A stretch of DNA of 64,000 bases, taken from contig CAXYYS010000001.1 in NCBI GenBank assembly GCA_964293585.1, forward strand, positions 5,755 through 69,754. The letters run 5' to 3'. The stretch comes from an uncultured Acidaminococcales bacterium (lineage in GTDB: Bacteria; Bacillota; Negativicutes; Acidaminococcales; Acidaminococcaceae). Position numbers and translations under genes: made by a program. Numbering within the stretch: position 1 is the first letter of the stretch; the number at the start of each line of letters is the position of its first letter. Below the pieces are notes generated by a model. That model was given only the letters and a program-made list of their open reading frames with translations. It did not search any database and was not told where the DNA came from. This document shows positions 6,753 to 58,042 of the stretch, piece after piece.

Positions 6753-8672
6753 ATGGAAGCAGGCAAGATCCTGAGAGGACGCTACGAGATCATCAAGCCG
6801 ATAGGTTTTGGCGGCATGGCCGATGTCTATCTGGCCCGGGACGTACTTTTGGACCGCCGGGTGGCTGTGAAAGTTTTAAAGGACCAGTTCCTGAAGGACA
6901 AGAGCCAGCTGGCTCAGTTTGAGCGGGAAGCAAAATCGGCGGCCCGGCTTATCCACCCTTCTATCATCAATATTTTCGACGTCTGCGAGGAGGACGGCAT
7001 CCACTATATCGTCATGGAATACGTGGAAGGCATCACCCTGAAGGCGTACGAGGAGCAGAAAGGCCGGCTGGAAATACCTCAGGCGGTCAGCATTGCGGCG
7101 CAGCTGGCGGCGGCGCTGCAGCATGCCCATAAACATAATATTATTCACTGCGACATTAAGCCCCAGAATATCCTGTTAGCGGAAGGCCTGGTGCCCAAGA
7201 TTGTGGACTTCGGCATTTCCCGCATGGTCAGCGACGAGACCATGGTCTTTAACGCCAACGTGGTGGGCAGCGTACATTATTTTTCGCCGGAGCAGGCTCA
7301 GGGCGAAGCGGTAACGGCCCAGTCTGATATTTATTCTTTAGGCGTGGTGCTGTACGAGATGATCGCCGGCCAGGTGCCGTTTGACGGCAGCACGGCCCTG
7401 GCGGTAGCCCGTATGCATATCGAGGCGGAGCCGGAACCTTTGGCTACCTATGTGAAAGACGTACCGCCCCGCTTGCAGCATGTGATTGATAAGTCGTTAG
7501 CCAAAAGTCTGGCGGAACGCTACCAGACGGCGGAAGAGATGCGCCGGGATTTGCTGGCGGTGAAAGCTGATCTGATCGGCGAAGACGTAGACGTAAATTA
7601 CCATAGCGGCTACACGGAACCGCTGGAACCTGTAGGCCCGGAAGTGGCTGATTTCCAGGGCGAGGAGGACGCCACCCGGGTGATGAGCCCGGTACCTGCC
7701 AGGGAAGAACTGGCAGTTGTGGATGCCAAAGCCGCCCGGAAAAAGAAAATCAAGAAGATACTCATGTACTGCCTGAGTGCTTTTATCGTGCTCTGCGTAG
7801 CTCTGGCCGGGTATTTTACCTATACCACGCCTAACGTGGAAGTACCGGCCGTAACCGGTATGACCGTGGTGGAAGCACAGAAAGTCCTGGAAGATGCTGG
7901 CTTTAAGATTAAGTTAAAAGAAGAATATGATGCCAGCGTGACCCCGGGGACGGTTATGAAACAGGATCCGGCGCCCAAGACCATGAAGAAGAGCGGCGCC
8001 GTCGTGACCATCACCATCTGCCGCGGCCTGGAACTTTTGACCGTGCCCAATGTGACCGGTCAGACCCTGGAGCAGGCCAAGCAGAACCTGGAAGCAGCCG
8101 GCTACAAAGTTGGCAACGTGACCAAGACCTGGGACAGCAGCAAGAGCAAGGATGTAATCCTGAAGCAGTCGCCCAAGGCGGACAGCAAACTGCCTAAAGG
8201 TACGGCTATCGACCTGGTGGTAAACCAGAAGGAAGACGAAAAACCCAAGAAGGCGCAGATGCCTAATATCGTAGGCCTGTCCCTGGATAACGGCCAGGAC
8301 AAGCTTATCGCCCTGGGACTGAATATCGGCGAGCTGAAGACCGTGGACAGCGAGAAACCGGCTAATATCATCGTCGGTATGTCTCCGGAAGCGGGTACGA
8401 CGGTGAGCAGCGAGAGCAAGATTTCTCTGACTATTTCCAGCGGCAAGAAACCGCCGGCACCGGCTACCAACACCCAGTACGTGGAATTTGTGGTACCGGG
8501 TACGGGCGACCATGCGGTGCAGATTTTTGTAAAAGATGCCCAGAAGCAGTGGGTAGCTGCCGACGGCAAGTATAAGGGCGGTACCCGGGTGCGGCAGAAA
8601 CTGACCTTGTCCGGACCGGCCAAGGTACAGTTCTTTGTGGACCAGAAATTGCTGGAGGAAAAAAGTCTGTGA
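6753..8672 (+). CDS. prkC: Ser/Thr protein kinase with a TM segment and three PASTA repeats (PrkC/PknB type)
   Basis: Hanks kinase motifs (GGMADVY, VAVK, HCDIKPQN, DFG, SPEQ). A TM helix follows, then three VP.V.G....A...L repeats. Confidence 0.92.
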   Translation: MEAGKILRGRYEIIKPIGFGGMADVYLARDVLLDRRVAVKVLKDQFLKDKSQLAQFEREAKSAARLIHPSIINIFDVCEEDGIHYIVMEYVEGITLKAYEEQKGRLEIPQAVSIAAQLAAALQHAHKHNIIHCDIKPQNILLAEGLVPKIVDFGISRMVSDETMVFNANVVGSVHYFSPEQAQGEAVTAQSDIYSLGVVLYEMIAGQVPFDGSTALAVARMHIEAEPEPLATYVKDVPPRLQHVIDKSLAKSLAERYQTAEEMRRDLLAVKADLIGEDVDVNYHSGYTEPLEPVGPEVADFQGEEDATRVMSPVPAREELAVVDAKAARKKKIKKILMYCLSAFIVLCVALAGYFTYTTPNVEVPAVTGMTVVEAQKVLEDAGFKIKLKEEYDASVTPGTVMKQDPAPKTMKKSGAVVTITICRGLELLTVPNVTGQTLEQAKQNLEAAGYKVGNVTKTWDSSKSKDVILKQSPKADSKLPKGTAIDLVVNQKEDEKPKKAQMPNIVGLSLDNGQDKLIALGLNIGELKTVDSEKPANIIVGMSPEAGTTVSSESKISLTISSGKKPPAPATNTQYVEFVVPGTGDHAVQIFVKDAQKQWVAADGKYKGGTRVRQKLTLSGPAKVQFFVDQKLLEEKSL

Positions 8673-9547
8673 GTGAAGGCAGGGTTCTTAAAGCCTACAA
8701 CAGTTTTTATTACGTGGCCGCCGGCGGCGTAACTTACACCTGCAAGGTGAAGGGACGCATGAAACAGGAACGGTTTTCCCTGTGTCCCGGCGACCTGGTA
8801 ACTTTTGACCAGGACGGTACGGCGGGCATGATCACGTCCGTGCTGCCCCGGCGCAACTTTATGACGCGGCCCACGGTGGCGAACCTGGATGCGCTGGTGC
8901 TGACCATGGCGGTGGCGAAACCACTTTTCAGCCCGCTGATCCTGGATAAGCTGCTGGTGCTGGCGGCTACGCACAAGATGCCGGTGCTGCTGGCTTTGAA
9001 CAAGATGGATGCGGCCGTGCCGGAGGAGGCGCAGGCCCTGGTACAGATTTACCGGCAGGCCGGGTACCGGGTCTTTCCTGTCTCGGCTAAAACCGGCGCC
9101 GGCATCCCGGAACTGCAGGCGGCGCTGGCCGGTAAGATCACGGCTTTCGGCGGCCCCAGCGGTGTGGGAAAATCTTCCCTGATGAACGCCCTGGACCCGG
9201 AGCTGGCTCAGCAGACCGGCGCTTTAAGCGAAAAGATCAGCCGCGGCAAACACACTACCAGGTTTACGACCCTGGTACCTTTTAACGGCGGCTACCTGGC
9301 AGACACACCCGGGTTTGGCAATGTGTTCCTGGAAGGGGTGGAGCTGGGGGACCTGGCCGGTTATTTTCCGGAATTTGCGGCCTACGCACAGGAGTGTAAG
9401 TTTACTCCCTGTACTCATGACCATGAAAAGATTTGCGGCGTGAAAAACGCCGTGGCGGCAGGCAGGATTGCCCGCAGCCGTTATGCTTCGTATCTGGCCC
9501 TGCGGCAGGAACTTACCGCGGCCGGGGAAAGGATGTACCGCAAATGA
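8669..9547 (+). CDS. rsgA: Ribosome small-subunit-dependent GTPase A
   Basis: Circularly permuted GTPase motifs (NKMD ... GPSGVGKSS) and a C-terminal zinc motif CKFTPCTHDHEKIC. The GTG start overlaps the prkC stop (GTGA). Confidence 0.9.
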   Translation: MSEGRVLKAYNSFYYVAAGGVTYTCKVKGRMKQERFSLCPGDLVTFDQDGTAGMITSVLPRRNFMTRPTVANLDALVLTMAVAKPLFSPLILDKLLVLAATHKMPVLLALNKMDAAVPEEAQALVQIYRQAGYRVFPVSAKTGAGIPELQAALAGKITAFGGPSGVGKSSLMNALDPELAQQTGALSEKISRGKHTTRFTTLVPFNGGYLADTPGFGNVFLEGVELGDLAGYFPEFAAYAQECKFTPCTHDHEKICGVKNAVAAGRIARSRYASYLALRQELTAAGERMYRK

Positions 9548-10206
9548 TTAAGATTGCTCCGTCAATCCTCTCGGCAGATTTTTCTAAGTTGGGCGAGGAA
9601 ATTAAAAAGATTGAGGCGGCAGGTGCGGACTGGGTCCACATCGACGTCATGGACGGGAACTTTGTCCCTAACCTGACTTTTGGCGCTCCCGTGGTAAAAA
9701 AGCTGCGCCCGGTGACCCAGCTGCCTTTTGACTGCCACCTGATGGTGGAACATCCGGAAACTTATATTGATGCCTTTGTGGAAGCCGGCGCCGATATGAT
9801 CGTGGTCCATGCGGAAGCGACCCAGCATCTGCACCGCTGCCTGCAGGCAATTCATGCCCACGGCATTAAGGCCGGGGTAGCTTTGAATCCGGCCACCTCT
9901 TTGAGTACCATCGAGTGGGTGATGCCGAATGTGGATTTGTTTTTGCTGATGACGGTGAACCCGGGCTACGGCGGCCAGAGTTTTATCACAACCATGCCGC
10001 CCAAGATCACCCAGCTGCGGCGTATGTTGCAGGCGGCCGGGCTGAATACGGATATCGAGGTGGACGGCGGCATTAACAAAAAGACGGCGCCACTGGTAAT
10101 TGCGGCCGGGGCCAATGTGCTGGTGGCCGGGTCCTATGTGTACGGCGCGGCTGATACCAAAGAAGCCATCGCTACTTTGCGCAGCGGTTTAGGCGAGAAC
10201 TGCTGA
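9544..10206 (+). CDS. rpe: Ribulose-phosphate 3-epimerase
   Basis: N-terminus MIKIAPSILSADF, plus HIDVMDG and VDGG. ATG 9544 overlaps the rsgA stop (ATGA). The ORF-track start at 9433 is an out-of-frame overlap extension. Confidence 0.93.
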   Translation: MIKIAPSILSADFSKLGEEIKKIEAAGADWVHIDVMDGNFVPNLTFGAPVVKKLRPVTQLPFDCHLMVEHPETYIDAFVEAGADMIVVHAEATQHLHRCLQAIHAHGIKAGVALNPATSLSTIEWVMPNVDLFLLMTVNPGYGGQSFITTMPPKITQLRRMLQAAGLNTDIEVDGGINKKTAPLVIAAGANVLVAGSYVYGAADTKEAIATLRSGLGENC

Positions 10207-10244
10207 AGCCAGGTGCTTCACAGAATCTTCTCAGGTCGTGCTGT

Positions 10245-10273
10245 TGACAGTACCGGTACCACTCATTATAATG
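10245..10273 (+). promoter_or_regulatory. Consensus sigma-A promoter of the rib operon
   Basis: TTGACA (10245-10250), a 17-nt spacer, then TATAAT (10268-10273). Confidence 0.8.
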
Positions 10274-10288
10274 AATATTGTAAGAACG

Positions 10289-10394
10289 TCTTTGGGGTTG
10301 GGAGCGTTTCCCTACCGGCGGTAAAGTCCGCGAGCCTTCGGGCATGATCCGGTGCGATTCCGGAACCGACAGTATAGTCTGGATGAAAAAAGAC
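10289..10394 (+). promoter_or_regulatory. FMN riboswitch (RFN element)
   Basis: P1 is GTCTTT...AAAGAC. Conserved blocks are present: GGGAGCGTTTCCCTACCGGCGGTAAAGTCCGCGAGC, GGTGCGATTCCGGAACCGACAGTATAGTCTGGATG. It lies upstream of ribD. Confidence 0.9.
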
Positions 10395-10410
10395 AGGACT
10401 GGCTAAGACA

Positions 10411-10446
10411 AGCGGTAAACCCCACAGGGGGTTTGCCGCTTTTTTA
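10411..10446 (+). terminator. Riboswitch expression-platform terminator
   Basis: AGCGGTAAACCCC / GGGGGTTTGCCGCT stem followed by TTTTTT. Confidence 0.85.
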
Positions 10447-10545
10447 TATGGTAGGGAAGGCCGCTGCCGGAAAAGCTGCGGTAGTAGTAAAGCTGGAGGC
10501 CGTTGCCAGGCGGTGGCGGTCTTACAGGTAGAGGAGGCTGACAGG

Positions 10546-11649
10546 ATGACCGATTTAGAATATATGCAGTTGGCGCTGGAACTGGCCCGGCAGGCGGAAG
10601 GCGAAACCAGTCCCAATCCTATGGTGGGCTGCGTCATCACCGACGCGGCGGGGAACATCGTGGGCCGGGGTTATCATCACAAGGCAGGGGAAGCCCACGC
10701 CGAGGTGAATGCCCTGGCGGATGTCAGGAAACACAAAGCCATGCCCCATACGGCTTATGTGACCCTGGAACCCTGCAGCCATTTTGGACGGACCGGTCCC
10801 TGCTGCGATGCCTTGCTTAGGGCAGGTATTAAGCGGGTGGTAGCGGCCCAGGAAGATCCTAATCCCAAGGTGTGCGGCCAGGGTTTTGCCCGGCTCCGCG
10901 CCGGCGGGGTCCAGGTGGAAGTGGGGCTATGTGAGGCGGAAGCCCGCCGTTTGAACGAACATTTTTTACGCTGGGTCACCACCCGGCGTCCTTTCGTCAG
11001 CTTAAAGTATGCCATGACCCTGGACGGGAAACTGGCCACGGCCGCCGGTGACGGGCAGCAGGTCACTGGCAGGGAGGCCCATGTGGAGGCGCATTATTTG
11101 CGCAAGATCCATGATGCCATCCTGGTAGGTATCGGCACCGTCCTGGCAGACGATCCGGAACTGACCACCCGGCTGGTGCAAGGTAAAAATCCGGTGCGGA
11201 TCGTGCTTGACAGCCAGGCCCGTATCCCGCTCACAGCACAAGTTTTGCAGGGCGGCACGACCACGATTATTGTGGTGGGACCAGAGGCGCCGGCGGCTAA
11301 GCTGGAACTGTTAGCCAAGCTGCCGGAGGTAGAGGTTTTAACTTTACCGGCGCCGGCAGGTAAATTGGATTTAGGAAAACTTTTAGATATTTTAGGTGAG
11401 CGCAAGCTGACCAGTCTGCTGGTAGAAGGCGGCAGCCAGGTCCACGGCAGTTTTGTGGATGCCGGACTGGTGGACAGGATTTATGCTTTTATCGCTCCCA
11501 AGGTGGTAGGCGGCGCAGCAGCACTGCCGCCCATTGGCGGTACGGGTCTGGCGGCTATGGCGCCGGGACTGCCGGTAGCCGTGGATACCACCAGGGTTTT
11601 AGGTAAAGATTTTTTGATCACAGGCCGGGTGACGGCCGGGGAGGTCTGA
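10546..11649 (+). CDS. ribD: Bifunctional diaminohydroxyphosphoribosylaminopyrimidine deaminase / 5-amino-6-(5-phosphoribosylamino)uracil reductase
   Basis: Deaminase motifs HAE and PCxxxxxxxxC (LEPCSHFGRTGPC), then a reductase domain. ATG 10546 follows GAGGAGG. Confidence 0.92.
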   Translation: MTDLEYMQLALELARQAEGETSPNPMVGCVITDAAGNIVGRGYHHKAGEAHAEVNALADVRKHKAMPHTAYVTLEPCSHFGRTGPCCDALLRAGIKRVVAAQEDPNPKVCGQGFARLRAGGVQVEVGLCEAEARRLNEHFLRWVTTRRPFVSLKYAMTLDGKLATAAGDGQQVTGREAHVEAHYLRKIHDAILVGIGTVLADDPELTTRLVQGKNPVRIVLDSQARIPLTAQVLQGGTTTIIVVGPEAPAAKLELLAKLPEVEVLTLPAPAGKLDLGKLLDILGERKLTSLLVEGGSQVHGSFVDAGLVDRIYAFIAPKVVGGAAALPPIGGTGLAAMAPGLPVAVDTTRVLGKDFLITGRVTAGEV

Positions 11650-11650
11650 A

Positions 11651-12331
11651 ATGTTTACAGGATTAGTAGCGGAGCTGGGCACGGTGCTCAGCCTGACGGA
11701 AGATGCACAGACCTGCCGCCTGGCCGTGCGGGCCCGGCAAGTTTTACCGGGTCTCAAACTGGGCGACAGCATAGCGGTGAACGGTGTGTGTCTGACGGTG
11801 GTGGTCTTAACCGGCAGCAGTTTTACAGCGGATGTGATGCCGGAAACTTTGCGCAGCAGTAATTTAGGCCAGCTGAAACCTGGCAGTAAGGTAAACCTGG
11901 AGCGCACGCTGCGTCCGGCGGACGGGCTGGATGGTCATCTGGTGCTGGGTCATGTGGAAGGCATCGGTACCATTGCCGGTATTACCAGGGAAGGCAATGC
12001 GGAAGTGTTCCGCATCACCGCGCCGGCAGATTTGCTGCGGTATATTATCCCCAAGGGTTCTATCGCCGTGGACGGCATCAGCCTGACCGTGACCACGGTG
12101 ACAGATCAGGATTTTGGCGTTTCCCTGATTCCCACCACCAGGAAAAGTACGACCCTGGGAGAGAAGGGCGTGGGAGGACAGGTAAACCTGGAAACCGATA
12201 TCCTGGCCAAGTATGTGGAGCGGATGCTGGCGGCGCGTTTTAGTCAGACGGCCGCAGCCGGCGGGTCTCGCCGTACCCAGGTGGAAAACGCAGGTCTGAC
12301 CGCGGAATTTTTAGCCAAAAATGGTTTTTAA
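11651..12331 (+). CDS. ribE: Riboflavin synthase (alpha chain)
   Basis: N-terminus MFTGLV.E.G and a duplicated lumazine-binding repeat ([13 protein letters not shown] / [12 protein letters not shown]). Confidence 0.92.
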
Positions 12332-12411
12332 AAGCAGCAGGTCCTGCTGGTCCGGCAGGCCTGGCTGTACAGATAAACAGTAATTTTACAGAGAGAACAG
12401 AGGAGTTCAAG

Positions 12412-13632
12412 ATGGAAAATTTTAAATTTAACACGGTGGAAGAAGCTATAGCCGCTATCAAGGCAGGCCAGATGGTCCTGGTTACTGACGATGAGGACCG
12501 GGAGAACGAGGGCGACCTGATTACCAGCGCCAAACTCTGCACCCCGGAGCTAGTAAATTTTATGGCCAGGGAAGCCCGGGGGCTGATCTGTATGCCGGCC
12601 GCGCCGGAAATTATGGATAAGCTGCAGTTTGGCGCCATGGTGGCCAATAACACGGATAACCACGAGACAGCTTTTTCCGTGTCGGTGGATTATAAGGATA
12701 CCACCACCGGCATCAGCGCTTACGAGCGGGCCCGTACCATGCAGATGTGCGCGGACCCGGCGGTCCAGCCCGGCGATTTTCGCCGTCCCGGTCACTGCTT
12801 TCCGCTACGTTCCCGGGCAGGCGGCGTCTTAGTCCGCACCGGCCACACGGAAGCGACCACGGATTTGTGTAAGCTGGCCGGTCTGCCGCCGGTAGGCTTG
12901 TGCTGCGAGATCATGAAGGACGACGGCCATATGGCCCGGGTGCCGGATCTGATTAAATTTGCCCGGAAACACCAGCTGGTGTTTATTACGGTGGCAGAAC
13001 TGGTAGCCTACCGTAAGGCTCACGAAAAGATGGTGCACCGGGTAGCGGAAGCAGCCCTGCCCAGCAAGTACGGCACCTTCCGTATCATCGCCTACGAAAA
13101 CGACCTGGACGACCTTTGCCATGTGGCTCTGGTCAAGGGCGACGTCAAAGGAAAGAAAGATGTGCTGGTGCGGGTTCATTCCGAATGTCTCACCGGCGAT
13201 GCTTTCGGCAGTTTGCGCTGCGACTGCGGCGACCAGCTGGCCACGGCTTTAAAGATGATTGAAAAAGAAGGCTGCGGCGTGGTGGTGTACATGCGGCAGG
13301 AAGGCCGCGGCATCGGCCTGGCCAATAAGATTCGCGCCTACGCCCTGCAGGATCAGGGTCTGGATACGGTGGAAGCCAATGTACGTTTAGGTTTTGCCCC
13401 GGATTTGCGGGACTACGGTCTGGGCGCCCAGATCCTGGCGGATTTAGGCCTGACCAGTATCCGGCTTATCACCAACAACCCGGCGAAACGGGCGGGACTT
13501 TCCGGGTACGGCATCACGGTTTCGGACCGGGTGCCCATCATCATGGAGCCCAACCATTATAACGAACATTATCTGGAAACCAAGGAAGACAAGATGGGGC
13601 ATAAGCTGCATCTGCCTCAGGAAGGGAAGTAA
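12412..13632 (+). CDS. ribBA: Bifunctional 3,4-dihydroxy-2-butanone-4-phosphate synthase / GTP cyclohydrolase II
   Basis: DHBP synthase motifs ([15 protein letters not shown]) and GCH-II motifs ([19 protein letters not shown]). Confidence 0.93.
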
Positions 13633-13637
13633 GCGTC

Positions 13638-14717
13638 ATGGCTAAGCCAGGAAATAAGAAACAGCTGCTGCCGGTACTTCTGGCAGCGGTGTTGATGTGG
13701 GGTCTGCCCTGGGCTAACGTTCAGGCGGCTAAGAAACCGGTTATTACCGCGCCCACTACTTCGGTGGCGGAGCTGCAGGAAGTTCTGGCTATCGAGGCCC
13801 AGGAACAGCCTGCGGCGGTTTCTGCCTACGAGCAGCCACTGGTGCATCCCGTCCGGGAACGTGGCTATCTCTGGCGCTACGAAGGCACCGGCACCGGGGG
13901 ACTGCCACGACGTTTCCGTACGGAACAGTATCCGTTAGCCAAAGCGGCCTGGACTCCCAGTACGGAAGGTCTGGCTGCCTTGCGCGTTTCCGGCAGCGCC
14001 AATCCGGGACGCAATGAGTTTAAACCCCTGCTGCAGACTTTACGCACGGCGGCAGGCCAGGGACCCATCTATATCGTGGATTTGCGCCAGGAAAGCCACG
14101 GGTATCTGAACAACGAAACCGTCAGCTGGTACGGCAAGGATAACCGGTCCAACGTAGGTTTAAGCACGGCAGCTATCCTGCAGGATGAAGCTCAGCGCCT
14201 GGCGGCTGCGCAGGGTAAGACCGTGGCGGCTACAGCTTTTGGCTGGGGAAAACCCACGGGAGGCAAAACTTTTACCGTGACCAGTTCCGAGACGGAAGCG
14301 GCAGCGGTGCAGGCAGCCGGCGGGCATTATGTCAGGTTCACCCTGACGGATATGCTGGCGCCTCAACCGGATCAGGTAGATGCCTTTTTGAAGTTTTACA
14401 AGCGTCTGCCTAAAGATGCCTGGCTGCATTTTCACTGTCAGGCCGGTATGGGACGGACGACGACTTTCATGACCATGGCGGACATTCTCCGCAATGCGGA
14501 CCGGGTGCCGGTGGAAGACATCGCAGCCCGGCAGTATCTCCTGAAGGGCGTGAACCTTTTGGAAGGCGGCAAGAAGGACAGCGACGACTGGCACGAGCTG
14601 GCGGCGGTGGACCGGGCCCGTTTCATCAAATATTTTTATGATTATGTGCAGGCGTATCCCCAGCTGAATAAGAGCTGGTCCGCCTGGTTGAGCAAACAAG
14701 CAGCAGTAAATAAATAA
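13638..14717 (+). CDS. Secreted protein-tyrosine-phosphatase-like phytase (PTP-like inositol polyphosphatase family)
   Basis: Sec signal MAKPGNKKQLLPVLLAAVLMWGLPWANVQA/AKK. CX5R(S/T) P-loop HFHCQAGMGRTT, with a TD general-acid region 30 aa upstream. From memory, the C-terminal region resembles Selenomonas ruminantium PhyA-type enzymes. It sits 5 nt after ribBA and 43 nt before ribH. Confidence 0.75.
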   Translation: MAKPGNKKQLLPVLLAAVLMWGLPWANVQAAKKPVITAPTTSVAELQEVLAIEAQEQPAAVSAYEQPLVHPVRERGYLWRYEGTGTGGLPRRFRTEQYPLAKAAWTPSTEGLAALRVSGSANPGRNEFKPLLQTLRTAAGQGPIYIVDLRQESHGYLNNETVSWYGKDNRSNVGLSTAAILQDEAQRLAAAQGKTVAATAFGWGKPTGGKTFTVTSSETEAAAVQAAGGHYVRFTLTDMLAPQPDQVDAFLKFYKRLPKDAWLHFHCQAGMGRTTTFMTMADILRNADRVPVEDIAARQYLLKGVNLLEGGKKDSDDWHELAAVDRARFIKYFYDYVQAYPQLNKSWSAWLSKQAAVNK

Positions 14718-14760
14718 GTAAATAAATAAACAGCGTTTAAAATGCAGAGGAGGAAACAAC

Positions 14761-15225
14761 ATGCAAACTTTAGAAGGAAAATTAACCGCGAAAAATATGA
14801 AGGTGGCCATCGTGGTGGCCCGTTTTAACGAATTTATCACCAGCAAACTTTTAGGCGGCGCTTTAGACTGCCTGACCCGTCACGAGGCGGAGGATAAGAA
14901 TATTACCGTGGCCTGGGTGCCGGGTGCTTTTGAGATTCCCCTGGCTGCCCAAACTCTGGCCGCTACCAAAAAGTACGATGCGGTAATCTGCCTGGGCGCA
15001 GTGATTCGCGGCGCTACCCCGCATTTTGATTATGTGTGTGCCGAAGCTTCCAAAGGTGTGGCCCAGGTAGCTTTGCAGCAGCAGGTGCCGGTGGCTTTCG
15101 GTATCCTGACCACGGATACGATCCAGCAGGCCGTGGAACGCGCCGGCACCAAGAGCGGCAACAAGGGTACGGACGCAGCGATGAGCGCCATGGAGATGGT
15201 GAACCTGCTGCGGCAGGTAAAATAA
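14761..15225 (+). CDS. ribH: 6,7-dimethyl-8-ribityllumazine synthase
   Basis: Motifs [14 protein letters not shown] and G.TPHFDYV. RBS GAGGAGG. Confidence 0.93.
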
Positions 15226-15226
15226 T

Positions 15227-16093
15227 ATGGCCCAGTTACCGGATATCTTAACCATGGGTACGGCGTCGGGCGTACGTATTTACGCCACCCGTACCACGAA
15301 TTTGACCCGTACTATTACCGAAAGGCATAAATGTTCCCATGTGGCCAGCGCCGCTTTAGGCCGGGCTATGGCCGGCGCCCTGCTGTTTGCCGCCACCATG
15401 AAGGACGGGGAGCGGGTTGGGCTGCGCTTTAAAGGCGACGGTCCTATCGGCGAGGTGGTAGCCGACGCAGAGAATTTCTGTGTGCGGGGCTATGTGGGCA
15501 ACCCGGATGTCTATCTGCCGCCCAAGAACGGCAAGCTGGATGTGGGCGGCGCCGTAGGTGCGGGCACTATTACCGTGACGCGCTACCGCAAGAATGCGGC
15601 GCCTTTTACCGGTTATGCCAACCTGGTCAGCGGCGAGATTGCCAATGATCTGACCAGTTATCTTTACACCTCGGAGCAGACGCCTTCTTCAGTGGCCCTG
15701 GGGGTTCTGGTAGCGCCCAGCGGTCAGGTCCTGGAAGCAGGCGGCTACTTTATCCAGGCGCTGCCGGATTGTGACGAGCACACCCTGGATATCCTGGACG
15801 CCAACGTGCGCCGTCTGCCCTATGTTTCCCAGATGCTGGAACTGGGGTACGGCCCGGAAAAGATGATTGAGCTTCTGGGACGCGGTCTGGAAACCCATAT
15901 TCTGGAAACAAAACCGGTGCAGTTTAAATGCCGCTGCAGCCGGGAACGGGTTTTACAAACTTTGGCGACGCTGCCGGCGAAGGATTTACAGGAGCTGGGG
16001 CAGGATGCCAAGACGGAAGTACATTGTCCTTTCTGCAACGAGACCTACCTGTTTAGCAAGGAAGAGATCCAGGCGTTGGCACAAGCTGAATAG
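15227..16093 (+). CDS. hslO: Hsp33-family redox-regulated chaperone
   Basis: C-terminal zinc centre CRCSRER ... CPFCNETY. It starts 1 nt after the ribH stop. Confidence 0.88.
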   Translation: MAQLPDILTMGTASGVRIYATRTTNLTRTITERHKCSHVASAALGRAMAGALLFAATMKDGERVGLRFKGDGPIGEVVADAENFCVRGYVGNPDVYLPPKNGKLDVGGAVGAGTITVTRYRKNAAPFTGYANLVSGEIANDLTSYLYTSEQTPSSVALGVLVAPSGQVLEAGGYFIQALPDCDEHTLDILDANVRRLPYVSQMLELGYGPEKMIELLGRGLETHILETKPVQFKCRCSRERVLQTLATLPAKDLQELGQDAKTEVHCPFCNETYLFSKEEIQALAQAE

Positions 16094-16101
16094 AAACTTT
16101 G

Positions 16102-16133
16102 GGACCAGCGGCTTTCCGGCGGCTGGTCCTTTT
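16102..16133 (+). terminator. Intrinsic terminator after hslO
   Basis: GGACCAGC (16102-16109) pairs with GCTGGTCC (16122-16129), followed by TTTT. Confidence 0.7.
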
Positions 16134-16154
16134 GCGCCGGCCGGTAAATTCTAC

Positions 16155-16184
16155 TTGACAAAAACGAACAACCGTTTGTATAAT
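16155..16184 (+). promoter_or_regulatory. recA sigma-A promoter
   Basis: TTGACA (16155-16160), an 18-nt spacer, then TATAAT (16179-16184). Confidence 0.75.
16165..16178 (+). promoter_or_regulatory. LexA (Cheo/DinR) SOS box inside the recA promoter spacer
   Basis: CGAACAACCGTTTG fits the Firmicute consensus CGAACnnnnGTTYG. Confidence 0.75.
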
Positions 16185-56667: not shown

Positions 56668-56772
56668 CTCATCAAGAGCGGTGGAGGGACTGGCCCGGTG
56701 AAACCGCAGCAACCATTAGCGTCTATGCAGGCGCTAAAAGGTGCTAAGTCCTGCGAGTAATCGTGAGATGAG
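56668..56772 (+). promoter_or_regulatory. SAM-I riboswitch (S-box)
   Basis: P1 is CTCATC...GATGAG. Conserved core: AAGAGCGGTGGAGGGACTGGCCCGGTGAAACCGCAGCAACC ... GGTGCTAAGTCCTGC. It lies upstream of metK. Confidence 0.9.
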
Positions 56773-56789
56773 ATTGCAAGAAATTGTAA

Positions 56790-56818
56790 GTGTTCTCTCA
56801 CAAAGAGAACACTTTTTT
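56790..56818 (+). terminator. S-box expression-platform terminator
   Basis: GTGTTCTCT-CACAA-AGAGAACAC followed by TTTTTT. Confidence 0.88.
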
Positions 56819-56863
56819 ATTCTCAAAGAGCCATGTGTCGCTAAAGAGCGAAAGGAGTTCATT

Positions 56864-58042
56864 ATGAAAAGCTTTTTTACGTCTGAGTCAGTAACAGAAG
56901 GTCATCCGGATAAAATTGCAGATCAAATTTCTGATGCTATCCTGGATGCCATCCTGGCTAAGGATCCCATGGGCCGGGTAGCCTGTGAGACCGTGGTAGC
57001 CACAGGACAAATTCATATCGTAGGTGAAATTTCTACGGATTGCTATGTTGATATCGGTAAGATTGCCCGCCAAACGGTCATTGACATTGGTTATGACCGT
57101 GCCAAATATGGTTTTGATGGCAATACCTGCGGCGTCCTGGTTTCCATCGATGAACAGAGCAGCGACATCGCCCTGGGTGTGGATAAGGCGCTGGAAGCCA
57201 AGGAAGGCAAAGCTGCCACTGAAGAAACCGGTGCTGGTGATCAGGGCATGATGTTTGGTTATGCGTGTGACGAGACACCGGAATTGATGCCGCTGCCTAT
57301 TTCTCTGGCGCATAAACTGGCGCGCCGTCTGACCCAGGTCAGGAAAGATGGTACCTTGAATAACCTGCGTCCGGATGGTAAAACTCAGGTGACCATTGAA
57401 TATGAAGACGACAAACCGGTACGGGTAGATACGATCGTTGTCAGCACCCAGCATGCACCGGAGGCACAACAGGAACAGATTGCCAGAGATATCCGGGAAT
57501 ATGTGATTAAACCTGTAGTTCCGGCAGCTATGTTAGATGAAAACACTAAATATTTTATTAATCCTACCGGCAGGTTTGTTATTGGTGGACCCCAAGGAGA
57601 CAGCGGGCTGACCGGCCGGAAAATCATTGTGGATACCTACGGCGGTATGGCCAGACATGGCGGCGGTGCTTTTAGCGGTAAGGACCCCACTAAAGTTGAC
57701 CGCAGTGCTTCTTATGCCGCCCGGTACGTGGCTAAGAATATCGTGGCCGCAGGCCTGGCTAAACGCTGTGAATTACAGTTGGCTTATGCCATCGGCGTAG
57801 CACAACCTGTTAGTATCCATGTAGAAACTTTTGGCACTGGTAAAATTGCTGATGATAAGATCGTGGAACTGGTAAAGAAGAATTTCTCGCTGACCCCTTC
57901 CGGTATTATCAGGACTTTAAATCTGCGTAGACCTATCTATAGACAGACCGCGGCCTATGGTCATATGGGCCGTACGGATATAGATTTACCCTGGGAGCAT
58001 ACGGATAAGGCCGCTGCTTTAAGAGAGCAGGCAGGTTTATAA
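56864..58042 (+). CDS. metK: S-adenosylmethionine synthetase
   Basis: Motifs [25 protein letters not shown] and [12 protein letters not shown] 56864 follows AAAGGAG. The ORF-track start at 56741 lies inside the riboswitch. Confidence 0.97.

Follow-up and report, generated by a model that had tools for sequence, protein, structure and literature searches.

We analysed a 64-kb stretch of DNA (64,000 nucleotides, hereafter the window) from an uncultured Acidaminococcales bacterium, which carries a riboflavin (rib) locus on its + strand. The locus opens with a promoter that matches the consensus at 12/12 positions (TTGACA-17-TATAAT, 10244-10272), followed by an FMN riboswitch aptamer (RF00050, 10284-10398; matched over the full length of the model with 101.6 bits, gathering score 66.2, E 2e-22) and an expression platform consisting of an intrinsic terminator and U-run (10410-10449). 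The terminator hairpin (10410-10441) has a 14-bp stem, 8 pairs of which are GC, and runs into TTTTTT (dG -25.8 kcal/mol, z -6.3). Downstream lie ribD (deaminase/reductase, 10546-11649; Pfam RibD_C 3e-50, dCMP_cyt_deam_1 7e-20), ribE (riboflavin synthase with two lumazine-binding domains, 11651-12331; Pfam Lum_binding 4.5e-53 in two stretches), ribBA (DHBP synthase/GTP cyclohydrolase II, 12412-13632; Pfam DHBP_synthase 2e-84, GTP_cyclohydro2 2e-75), a gene that we call X (13638-14717), which encodes a 359-aa, putatively exported protein of the PTP-like inositol-phosphatase family (PF14566), ribH (lumazine synthase, 14761-15225; Pfam DMRL_synthase 5e-63) and hslO (Hsp33 chaperone, 15227-16093; Pfam HSP33 2.5e-84), which begins 1 nt after ribH. 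A hairpin followed by UUUU after hslO (16101-16134; 12-bp stem, dG -24.8, z -2.1) is the likely operon terminator, and a 12/12-consensus recA promoter (16155-16184) is located downstream of it.

Organization of the rib operon and predicted FMN control

With an aptamer above its gathering score, a terminator platform and rib genes downstream, the locus is an RF00050-regulated rib operon, and the apparent transcription unit runs from the promoter, riboswitch and first terminator through ribD-ribE-ribBA-X-ribH-hslO to the second terminator. The start of ribD is likely ATG 10546 and not the GTG of the longest ORF (10513), because the gene is called at 367 aa in L001, L002 and L004. At the other end, the unit probably closes with hslO, whose spacer to ribH is 1 nt in the X-bearing lineage versus ~13-210 nt in relatives. 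Neither the revised ribD start nor hslO figured in the original prediction.

The ATG of X (13638) follows the ribBA stop (13630-13632) after 5 nt, with its Shine-Dalgarno sequence, GGAAGGGAAG, located within ribBA, and the X stop (14715-14717) is separated from the ribH ATG (14761) by 43 nt. Both junctions were unstructured (z +0.96 and +0.41), no hairpin or T-run was found at either of them, and a consensus scan of the + strand from 10441 to 16109 detected no promoter-like or terminator-like sites. Aptamers homologous to that of the window precede ribD in L002, L004, L006 and L015; L002 has the same rib promoter element, L006 a variant that matches at 10/12 positions, and the operon layout of the window recurs in both of these loci. 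Given spacers of 5 and 43 nt, junctions free of structure and a region in which no promoter-like or terminator-like site was found, we infer that X shares the transcript of the rib genes and is hence repressed by FMN.

The original prediction had read the gene order ribD-ribE-ribBA-X-ribH, its coordinates, its spacers and the Shine-Dalgarno sequence from the DNA, and these were reproduced by ORF and Pfam analysis. The FMN riboswitch that it placed ahead of the operon was recovered as RF00050, and its statement that neither X spacer holds a hairpin or T-run agreed with the folding z-scores and the site scan. Its proposal of co-transcription and FMN repression gains support from the matching architecture of the window, L002 and L006.

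Family, fold and catalytic residues of X

The ORF of X is intact, and the search against PTP-like phytase profiles that had been suggested for it returned PF14566 with 98 bits (cutoff 27), the match spanning the whole profile (positions 1-158 of 158). Strong PDB sequence matches were PTP-like inositol phosphatases throughout (E ~1e-108 to 1e-28), among them 3f41 (9e-108) and 1u24 (3e-60). The AF2 model of X (pLDDT 85, pTM 0.80) had 1u26_B as its top match in Foldseek (TM 0.84, E 1e-28), and every one of the top 35 matches belonged to the same family. The model and the Foldseek matches also showed the PTP core together with the partial beta-barrel 'phytase' domain.

The P-loop HCQAGMGRTT (14433-14462, residues 266-275), with nucleophile Cys267 and Arg273, fits the HC(X)5R(S/T) signature and aligns with H251-T259 of PhyAsr, the InsP6 phytase of Selenomonas ruminantium. 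All members of the clade of rib-linked X proteins and 100/100 other homologues share its H, C, A, G, G, R and T. In T237-D238, Asp238 (codon 14349-14351) aligns with the PhyAsr general acid D223; it is invariant in the clade and found in 99 of 100 other family members, and the general-acid loop reads DMLAP in X versus DHVWP in PhyAsr. Judged by these intact residues, X is predicted to be an active cysteine phosphatase that belongs to the PTP-like inositol-polyphosphatase family. The PF14566, PDB and Foldseek matches bear out the earlier assignment to PTP-like phytases of the Selenomonas/Mitsuokella type, and the P-loop and upstream TD acid motif named with it were confirmed by the alignment to PhyAsr.

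Two other identities were set aside. Against the XopH-type type III effector 1-phytase family (NCBIfam NF041348), X scored 157.9 bits with an equivalog cutoff of 500, which indicates a homologous domain only. The polymorphic-toxin DSP-PTPase PF22785 (Tc-R-P; 'phosphatase domain-containing putative toxin') matched with 34.2 bits over 62 residues around the P-loop and was rejected because PF14566 scores far higher over the same stretch; no toxin-module or immunity genes were found near X.

Export signal and substrate-contact residues

X begins with a Sec-type signal peptide (13638-13727, aa 1-30; predicted cleavage VQA/AK), judged by hydropathy and a motif heuristic and not by SignalP. A basic n-region (MAKPGNKK) is followed by an 11-residue hydrophobic core (mean Kyte-Doolittle 3.0) and an A-x-A-type site. 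Equivalent export-type N-termini were seen in 10/10 clade members, in the sister group and in most other relatives inspected, so that the export signal noticed at the outset proved to be a conserved feature. In the AF2 model, residues 1-70 form a low-confidence leader and linker. These features suggest that X is exported via Sec to the periplasm or outer surface of its diderm Negativicute host (Acidaminococcaceae).

The domain of X is strongly basic, with a pI of ~9.4 and a net charge of +7 (clade pI 9.3-9.7). At InsP6-contact positions of PhyAsr, X keeps R80, R91, K205, K313 and R326, of which R91 and K313 are variable within the clade. PhyAsr K305 and Y309, which we take to be further InsP6-contact positions in the PhyAsr complex, are H (H/N/T across the clade) and A (A/K/Q/E across the clade) in X. 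The basic residues of PhyAsr that bind the distal phosphates of InsP6 are R57, R68, K83, K189, K299 and K301 (PMC3981807). The K83 position is deleted in X, whose loop has a gap of 8 residues, and K301 is replaced by S (S/G/P/I across the clade). In the general-acid loop of the clade, W226 is replaced by A/G, a change shared by 1 of 100 other homologues and thus almost clade-unique, which could mean an altered substrate. Residue mapping and charge together did not separate the readings of the substrate considered below.

Conservation and origin of X in the operon

The order ribBA-X-ribH-hslO-recA was found on metagenomic contigs whose X proteins are 99, 87, 86, 82, 61, 52 and 49% identical to that of the window. 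The ribBA-X junction was always ≤6 nt or overlapping (overlap in L004 and L006), and the X-ribH spacers of L002 and L015 were AT-rich and 111-115 nt long. X is under purifying selection (dN/dS 0.17-0.22, with dS saturated), and its GC and GC3 equal those of the neighbouring genes. The 11 rib-linked X proteins form an exclusive monophyletic clade. In a scan of a genome collection, the only named carrier was L015, an Acidaminococcaceae MAG, and two distant non-rib homologues were detected in Pectinatus and Megasphaera.

The arrangement is thus conserved in one small lineage. The nearest relatives have no X and otherwise share the synteny, and 0/69 sampled operons outside the lineage carried a coding insert between ribBA and ribH. 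In a related human-gut species, this junction contains non-coding repeat inserts of 386-637 nt, which marks it as insertion-tolerant. A decayed X was sought in these spacers by tblastn (E up to 10), and only noise was obtained; the spacers consist of non-coding repeat units. The results point to one old, lineage-specific insertion, and a recent horizontal transfer was rejected on the neighbour-like GC/GC3, saturated dS and monophyletic clade. The original prediction had held that the regulatory link would fall if X were a recent insertion absent from the operon of its relatives. The insertion is not recent, as rib-linked X proteins diverge to 49% identity and dS is saturated; X is nevertheless restricted to one lineage and traces to a single event. 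Because the insertion was a single event, guilt-by-association for X amounts to one independent observation.

The other Negativicute homologues examined lie at different loci, for example downstream of SLH-porin gene arrays. Two apparent flavin contexts were discounted. A 44%-identical homologue (L011) is convergent to an FMN riboswitch-ribU-HD operon, and since relatives of the protein lie elsewhere, this was treated as chance. A sister-group member (L100) lies two genes from a TAT-exported flavodoxin, whose place is taken by a PTS gene in L101 and L102.

Interpretation of X in the rib operon

We favour, with a probability of roughly 55%, the reading that X is an exported phytase-type enzyme that was brought under FMN control by insertion and has no role in riboflavin biosynthesis. 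A single insertion into the ribBA/ribH junction, in the ancestor of this small lineage, would have brought the gene in, and purifying selection would have retained it. Since neither a promoter nor a terminator specific to X could be recognised, the gene would be transcribed from the rib promoter and turned off together with ribD-ribE-ribBA-ribH-hslO once FMN closes the riboswitch terminator. By family analogy, the Cys267 thiolate in the P-loop would attack the phosphomonoester, Arg273 would bind the phosphate, and Asp238 would protonate the leaving group and then activate water, by which phosphate would be freed from the phospho-cysteine intermediate. The most likely job of such an enzyme would be the family's usual one, the dephosphorylation of inositol polyphosphates or other external phosphoesters, and the flavin link would be regulatory, a consequence of the landing site, and not chemical.

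The presence of hslO in the same unit shows that this rib operon is not functionally pure. However, FMN riboswitch regulons normally comprise genes for riboflavin synthesis and transport, which makes an unrelated passenger unusual, and X has been kept with tight, translationally coupled junctions across genus-level divergence. The distal InsP6-binding positions at which the clade has lost or varied the PhyAsr residue (K83, K301, K305 and Y309) and the near clade-unique change at W226, with its possible effect on the substrate, also speak against a conventional phytase, and weak internal promoters may escape a consensus scan. FMN riboswitch regulons are usually seen as pure sets for synthesis and transport, and a member gene is commonly given its function from its neighbours. 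A passenger X would be a clean case of a functionally unrelated gene that has long been kept under riboswitch control; it would warn against annotating by association alone and make phytase expression dependent on flavin status.

The leading alternative, which we regard as rather unlikely, is that X was recruited as a periplasmic FMN phosphatase that converts external FMN to riboflavin for uptake by an inner-membrane transporter; FAD would also be used, as FAD-derived FMN after pyrophosphatase action, and the riboswitch would turn X on exactly when intracellular flavin is scarce. The predicted FMN repression and export of X fit this scheme, as do its long retention under purifying selection and its tight coupling to ribBA. 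The loss of distal polyphosphate-binding residues, together with the W226 change to A/G, could make room in the pocket for a bulky monophosphate ester. Salvage components within rib operons have a precedent, as ribM/pnuX are located inside actinobacterial rib operons. Some family members are also broad-specificity enzymes, as reported for PhyAmm D1 (PMC3981807). On the other hand, the association traces to only one independent evolutionary event, the domain of X is as basic as those of bona fide phytases, and the apparent flavin adjacencies of other PTP-like phytases (L011, L100) are not conserved in relatives. No riboflavin transporter or second FMN riboswitch was found in the 64-kb window, in which about half of the ORFs had Pfam domains and more were identified via the near-identical contig L001, and this absence of a flavin transporter among the identified ORFs also counts against salvage. 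No PTP-like phytase using FMN was reported in the literature searched. Furthermore, Bd1204, a structurally atypical family member, is strictly InsP6-specific; this precedent makes substrate inference from residues unreliable, and residue loss is no guide to specificity. In its fullest form, in which a re-purposed PTP-fold FMN phosphatase lets vitamin synthesis and extracellular salvage be switched on from one transcript, the idea is unlikely. If X acted on flavins, it would represent a salvage step unknown so far, in which a PTP-fold phosphatase in the periplasm supplies riboflavin for uptake by diderm Firmicutes; no enzyme of an FMN regulon would have been known to be exported before, and the PTP-like phytase family would gain its first role in vitamin salvage. 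The literature searched contained no prior description of a link between a PTP-like phytase (or phosphatase) and riboflavin or the FMN riboswitch, and no paper combined the two subjects, in agreement with the original view that the link was undescribed.

It is improbable that X, perhaps with ribH-hslO, is also or mainly expressed from a weak promoter in the 3' part of ribBA, in which case FMN control would be partial or absent and the position of X only topological. The B. subtilis rib operon, which contains internal promoters, offers a precedent; in L006, ribBA contains a 10/12 promoter-like site that lies ~165 nt ahead of X, and the 111-115-nt AT-rich X-ribH spacers of L002 and L015 could hold a ribH promoter. 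Against this, the operon of the window has no + strand promoter-like site, promoter-like counts do not exceed the shuffled expectation, neither X junction has a terminator or significant hairpin, and X is joined to ribBA by a 5-nt spacer with its Shine-Dalgarno sequence inside ribBA, or by gene overlap in L004 and L006.

Finally, it is very improbable that X is the missing dedicated cytoplasmic phosphatase for 5-amino-6-ribitylamino-uracil 5'-phosphate (ARPP) in riboflavin biosynthesis, as the original prediction had considered: the gene lies precisely within the operon, between ribBA and ribH, and the pathway phosphatase varies among organisms and is dedicated in none studied (PMC13151069), but the Sec-type signal peptide (by the heuristic used here), shared by the whole clade, its sister group and most of the further relatives examined, contradicts the idea and strongly disfavours a cytoplasmic enzyme, residues 1-70 appear in the AF2 model as a leader and linker of low confidence, and the closest relatives, with the same operon and no X, must use another enzyme. 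The PTP fold of X also differs from those of the known enzymes, since a 2026 review assigns this step only to HAD, histidine-phosphatase and IMPase enzymes (PMC13151069). X can thus be dropped as a candidate for the ARPP phosphatase step, which is still poorly defined.

Comparison with known systems

PhyAsr (PDB 1U24, 1U26, 3MMJ), whose host is a Negativicute like that of X, shares 41% identity with X over 301 columns (rmsd 2.6 Å). The two proteins have in common the fold (TM 0.84), the P-loop, the general acid, an N-terminal export signal and a basic catalytic domain. Compared with PhyAsr, X lacks 8 residues in the K83 loop, has lost K301, K305 and Y309, and carries M for H224 and A for W226 in the general-acid loop. 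Unlike PhyAsr, X also carries an additional linker next to the leader (~40 aa, including a conserved helix) and is embedded in an FMN-riboswitch operon. The best sequence match of X is PhyAmm of Mitsuokella multacida (PDB 3F41, 4WU3; E 9e-108). Its C-terminal repeat has an HCQAG-GRTT P-loop as in X, and its N-terminal repeat (HCYAGMGRTT) shares the M with X and likewise has no W226. In contrast to the single-domain X, PhyAmm carries two catalytic repeats in one ~620-aa chain, and its genomic context differs.

The operon itself resembles the Firmicutes rib operon of the B. subtilis ribDEAHT type, in placing promoter, RFN aptamer and intrinsic terminator before ribD-ribE-ribBA-ribH, whereas the window adds two non-pathway genes, the putatively exported X between ribBA and ribH and the terminal hslO. 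The B. subtilis ARPP phosphatase is located outside the rib operon (PMC13151069). The known ARPP phosphatases (the HAD enzymes YigB/YbjI, YcsE/YwtE/YitU and PyrP2, and the Aquifex histidine-family phosphatase and IMPase) are phosphomonoesterases like X and are tied to riboflavin synthesis functionally or by hypothesis. These enzymes are cytoplasmic and have other folds and mechanisms, whereas X is predicted to be exported and to use a cysteine nucleophile.

X encodes a catalytically intact member of the PTP-like phytase family

To place X, the 359-codon ORF at 13638-14717 (+ strand), we searched sequence, profile and structure collections. X matched the whole Pfam profile of the PTP-like phytases, PF14566 (98 bits; cutoff 27). 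Its best solved relative by sequence was the Mitsuokella multacida tandem phytase (3f41, E 9e-108), and Selenomonas ruminantium PhyAsr (1u24) matched at E 3e-60, with Desulfovibrio, Bdellovibrio and Legionella members ranking after these two. An AlphaFold2 model was built from an alignment of 47 homologues (mean pLDDT 85, pTM 0.80; residues 1-70 low-confidence). In Foldseek, PhyAsr was its top match (TM 0.84 on target, rmsd 2.6 Å, 41% identity), and the first 35 matches were all PTP-like inositol phosphatases. The PhyAsr P-loop (H251-C252-x-A-G-x-G-R258-T259) corresponds to HCQAGMGRT at residues 266-274 of X and its general acid D223 to D238; these residues were invariant in the 11 rib-linked X proteins and conserved in 99-100 of 100 other homologues. 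The family match and the conserved P-loop and general acid indicate, at the level of sequence, that X is a catalytically intact family member, in agreement with the original prediction of a Selenomonas-type enzyme with P-loop HCQAGMGRTT and an upstream acid Asp. Weaker matches to XopH (157.9 bits; cutoff 500) and to toxin-type PTP domains reflected the common domain only.

The N-terminus of X comprised a basic n-region, a hydrophobic core and a VQA/AK site, consistent with the Sec signal proposed earlier. By heuristic judgement of N-termini, an equivalent leader was present in all members of the rib-linked clade and in all sister-group members inspected; among the further Negativicute homologues inspected only P0043 lacked one, and its cluster also contains a longer, 366-aa form. 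Beyond the leader, the clade carries a ~40-residue linker with a conserved helix, AP-x2-SVAELQEAL. Export of X appears, from these predicted leaders, to be ancestral and retained.

X lies in an apparent FMN-controlled transcription unit

Pfam identified the genes flanking X as ribD, ribE (two lumazine-binding domains), ribBA (DHBP synthase plus GTP cyclohydrolase II) and ribH, giving the predicted order ribD-ribE-ribBA-X-ribH, and hslO (Hsp33) begins 1 nt past ribH. The ORF list and raw sequence reproduced the coordinates first assigned to X: it starts 5 nt beyond the ribBA stop (TAA, 13630-13632), its purine-rich Shine-Dalgarno sequence, GGAAGGGAAG, is located within ribBA, and 43 nt separate its end from the ribH ATG (14761). 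Upstream of ribD lie a perfect rib promoter (TTGACA-17-TATAAT, 10244-10272), the expected FMN riboswitch (Rfam, 10284-10398; 101.6 bits, gathering score 66.2) and a 14-bp hairpin with a U-run (10410-10449; dG -25.8 kcal/mol, z -6.3). The Hsp33 chaperone gene hslO (15227-16093) is followed by a 12-bp hairpin with UUUU (16101-16134; dG -24.8), past which stands a second perfect promoter, for recA. No further promoter-like or terminator-like site was found on the + strand from the riboswitch hairpin through hslO, and neither X junction was more stably folded than shuffled sequence (z +0.96 and +0.41), as anticipated for spacers free of hairpins and T-runs. These spacers, signals and unstructured junctions point to an apparent single unit, P-riboswitch-ribD-ribE-ribBA-X-ribH-hslO. 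Because no signal lies in the 1-nt gap after ribH and a hairpin with a U-run follows hslO, the FMN-controlled unit of the X-bearing lineage appears to end with this gene.

Relatives have ~13 to 210 nt between ribH and hslO. Longest-ORF starts were too long for two window genes: ribD probably starts at ATG 10546, not GTG 10513 (367-aa gene calls in relatives), and rpe near 9544, overlapping the rsgA stop, not at TTG 9433 (220-aa gene calls in relatives). A SAM riboswitch (RF00162, 56666-56774, 81.4 bits) was also detected upstream of a 433-aa ORF (56741-58042).

X arrived once and was retained

Relatives' loci were found by exact-protein look-ups and a genome-collection scan. The arrangement ribBA-X-ribH-hslO-recA was present on contigs with X identities of 99% (L001), 86% (L002, L003) and 82% (L004), and on deeper contigs at 61% (L005), 52% (L006-L008) and 49% (L009, L010); the scan added an identically arranged copy at 87% in L015, a MAG named Acidaminococcaceae bacterium UW_MP_ACID4_1. 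An FMN riboswitch preceded ribD in L002, L004, L006 and L015, and the promoter/terminator layouts of L002 and L006 agreed with the window. Across X-bearing contigs the ribBA-X junction was always ≤6 nt or overlapping, and identities were 88-100% for RecA, ~77-100% for RibH and down to 49% for X. The apparently longer X-ribH spacer in L001 (9164-9282), which contains a stretch of Ns and repeats the ribH start, is a scaffolding artefact.

Pairwise dN/dS of X was 0.17-0.22 in the less saturated pairs (dS of deeper pairs was saturated), compared with 0.02-0.04 for ribH and ribBA, 0.01-0.02 for recA and 0.13-0.16 for ribE. GC (0.58) and GC3 (0.644) of X equalled its neighbours' values, and a neighbour-joining tree built from 129 family sequences placed the 11 rib-linked proteins in an exclusive clade.

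Scanning metagenomes with RibH gave 80 loci. The nearest of them, mostly human-gut contigs, lacked X and kept ribD-ribE-ribBA-ribH-hslO-recA synteny (identity: RibH 76-82%, RibBA 83-88%, RecA 83-85%). Among the 69 loci holding both genes, none had a coding insert between ribBA and ribH (median spacer 77 nt). This spacer was 79 nt or 386-637 nt in one related human-gut species (L020-L041), the longer forms containing a non-coding hairpin unit, GGGCGTTTTTTGGATRCTTTTTGCCGCCC, once or several times, and no trace of X (examples: L027:3134-3766; L021:4395-5000, with the unit tandemly duplicated). The unit looks like a small intergenic element of mobile or repetitive type within a riboswitch-controlled operon. 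The X-free syntenic relatives, the absence of inserts and the repeat-filled spacers indicate an insertion-tolerant junction, at which X arrived once, long ago, in one lineage; the recent insertion considered as an alternative to the original prediction is contradicted by X being kept down to 49% identity.

Homologues below ~45% identity to X were located away from the rib operon. At three loci of other Negativicutes (L013, 1724-9056; L014; L099, 293-6085), a canonical single-domain phytase gene directly follows an array of three or four tandem SLH-porin genes; this context fits an outer-membrane-associated role. The L098 homologue adjoins a TetR/ABC module. The sister group has a conserved module of three overlapping genes (L100:6315-8529; L101 and L102:5313-7517) encoding an unknown ~228-aa protein, the PTP-like phosphatase (~310 aa, signal peptide) and a transglutaminase-core protein. 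This module directly follows dxs, tlyA and the NAD kinase gene. On contig L011, an FMN riboswitch (106 bits) heads a two-gene operon (9042-10437, - strand), which encodes a RibU-like ECF S-component and a 163-aa protein that has an HD domain and is not placed in any family. A PTP-like phytase gene (8001-8999) lies convergent to this operon. Being an FMN-controlled phosphohydrolase, the HD protein may be a hydrolase related to flavins.

Role of X and comparison with known phytases

We favour, at a probability of roughly 55%, X as a family-typical exported inositol-phosphate/phosphoester phosphatase, which insertion into the rib operon would have placed under FMN control by position; the inclusion of hslO gives a further indication that this operon is functionally mixed. 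The main rival, periplasmic dephosphorylation of FMN by X for riboflavin salvage, fits its regulation and localisation and would explain its long retention. However, it rests on one evolutionary event, and two other family-flavin gene links, the L011 phytase beside the ribU operon and the L100 homologue near a TAT-exported flavodoxin, were rejected as independent links, neither being conserved in relatives; we consider salvage unlikely. The ORFs examined in the 64-kb window were housekeeping genes and included no riboflavin transporter, and the rib leader was the window's sole FMN riboswitch. Cytoplasmic dephosphorylation of 5-amino-6-ribitylamino-uracil 5'-phosphate was rejected, being incompatible with the conserved predicted export, and close relatives with the same operon do without X; known enzymes for this step have other folds (PMC13151069). 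What remains is a putative extracytoplasmic phosphomonoesterase whose expression would follow the rib promoter and FMN riboswitch; a flavin-related reading has the smaller share of the probability, and the association goes back to one event confined to one lineage.

At PhyAsr substrate-contact positions, X retains R80, R91, K205, K313 and R326, and its domain is strongly basic (pI 9.4; clade 9.3-9.7). Unlike PhyAsr, the clade lacks K83 through an 8-residue deletion, present also in half of the family, and has variable residues at K301, K305 and Y309 (we take K305, Y309 and K312 to be contact positions in the PhyAsr-InsP6 complex). H224 is M or Q in most clade members and kept in two, and W226, beside the general acid, is A/G, a change almost unique to the clade. 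Contact residues in PhyAsr include R57, R68, K83, K189, K299 and K301 (PMC3981807). Lost contacts should not be taken as lost phytase activity, because the atypical member Bd1204, whose site is smaller and less basic than any other in the family, is still strictly InsP6-specific (PMC3981807); sequence alone does not settle the substrate of X.

Full-text literature searches found no paper linking a PTP-like phytase to riboflavin or an FMN riboswitch, as the original prediction had supposed, and no description of a phosphatase in an FMN regulon. The X protein is an unremarkable addition to a known family. What is new is a variation on a well-known operon architecture, in which an exported enzyme from outside the pathway is embedded in an FMN-riboswitch rib operon and apparently regulated by it.
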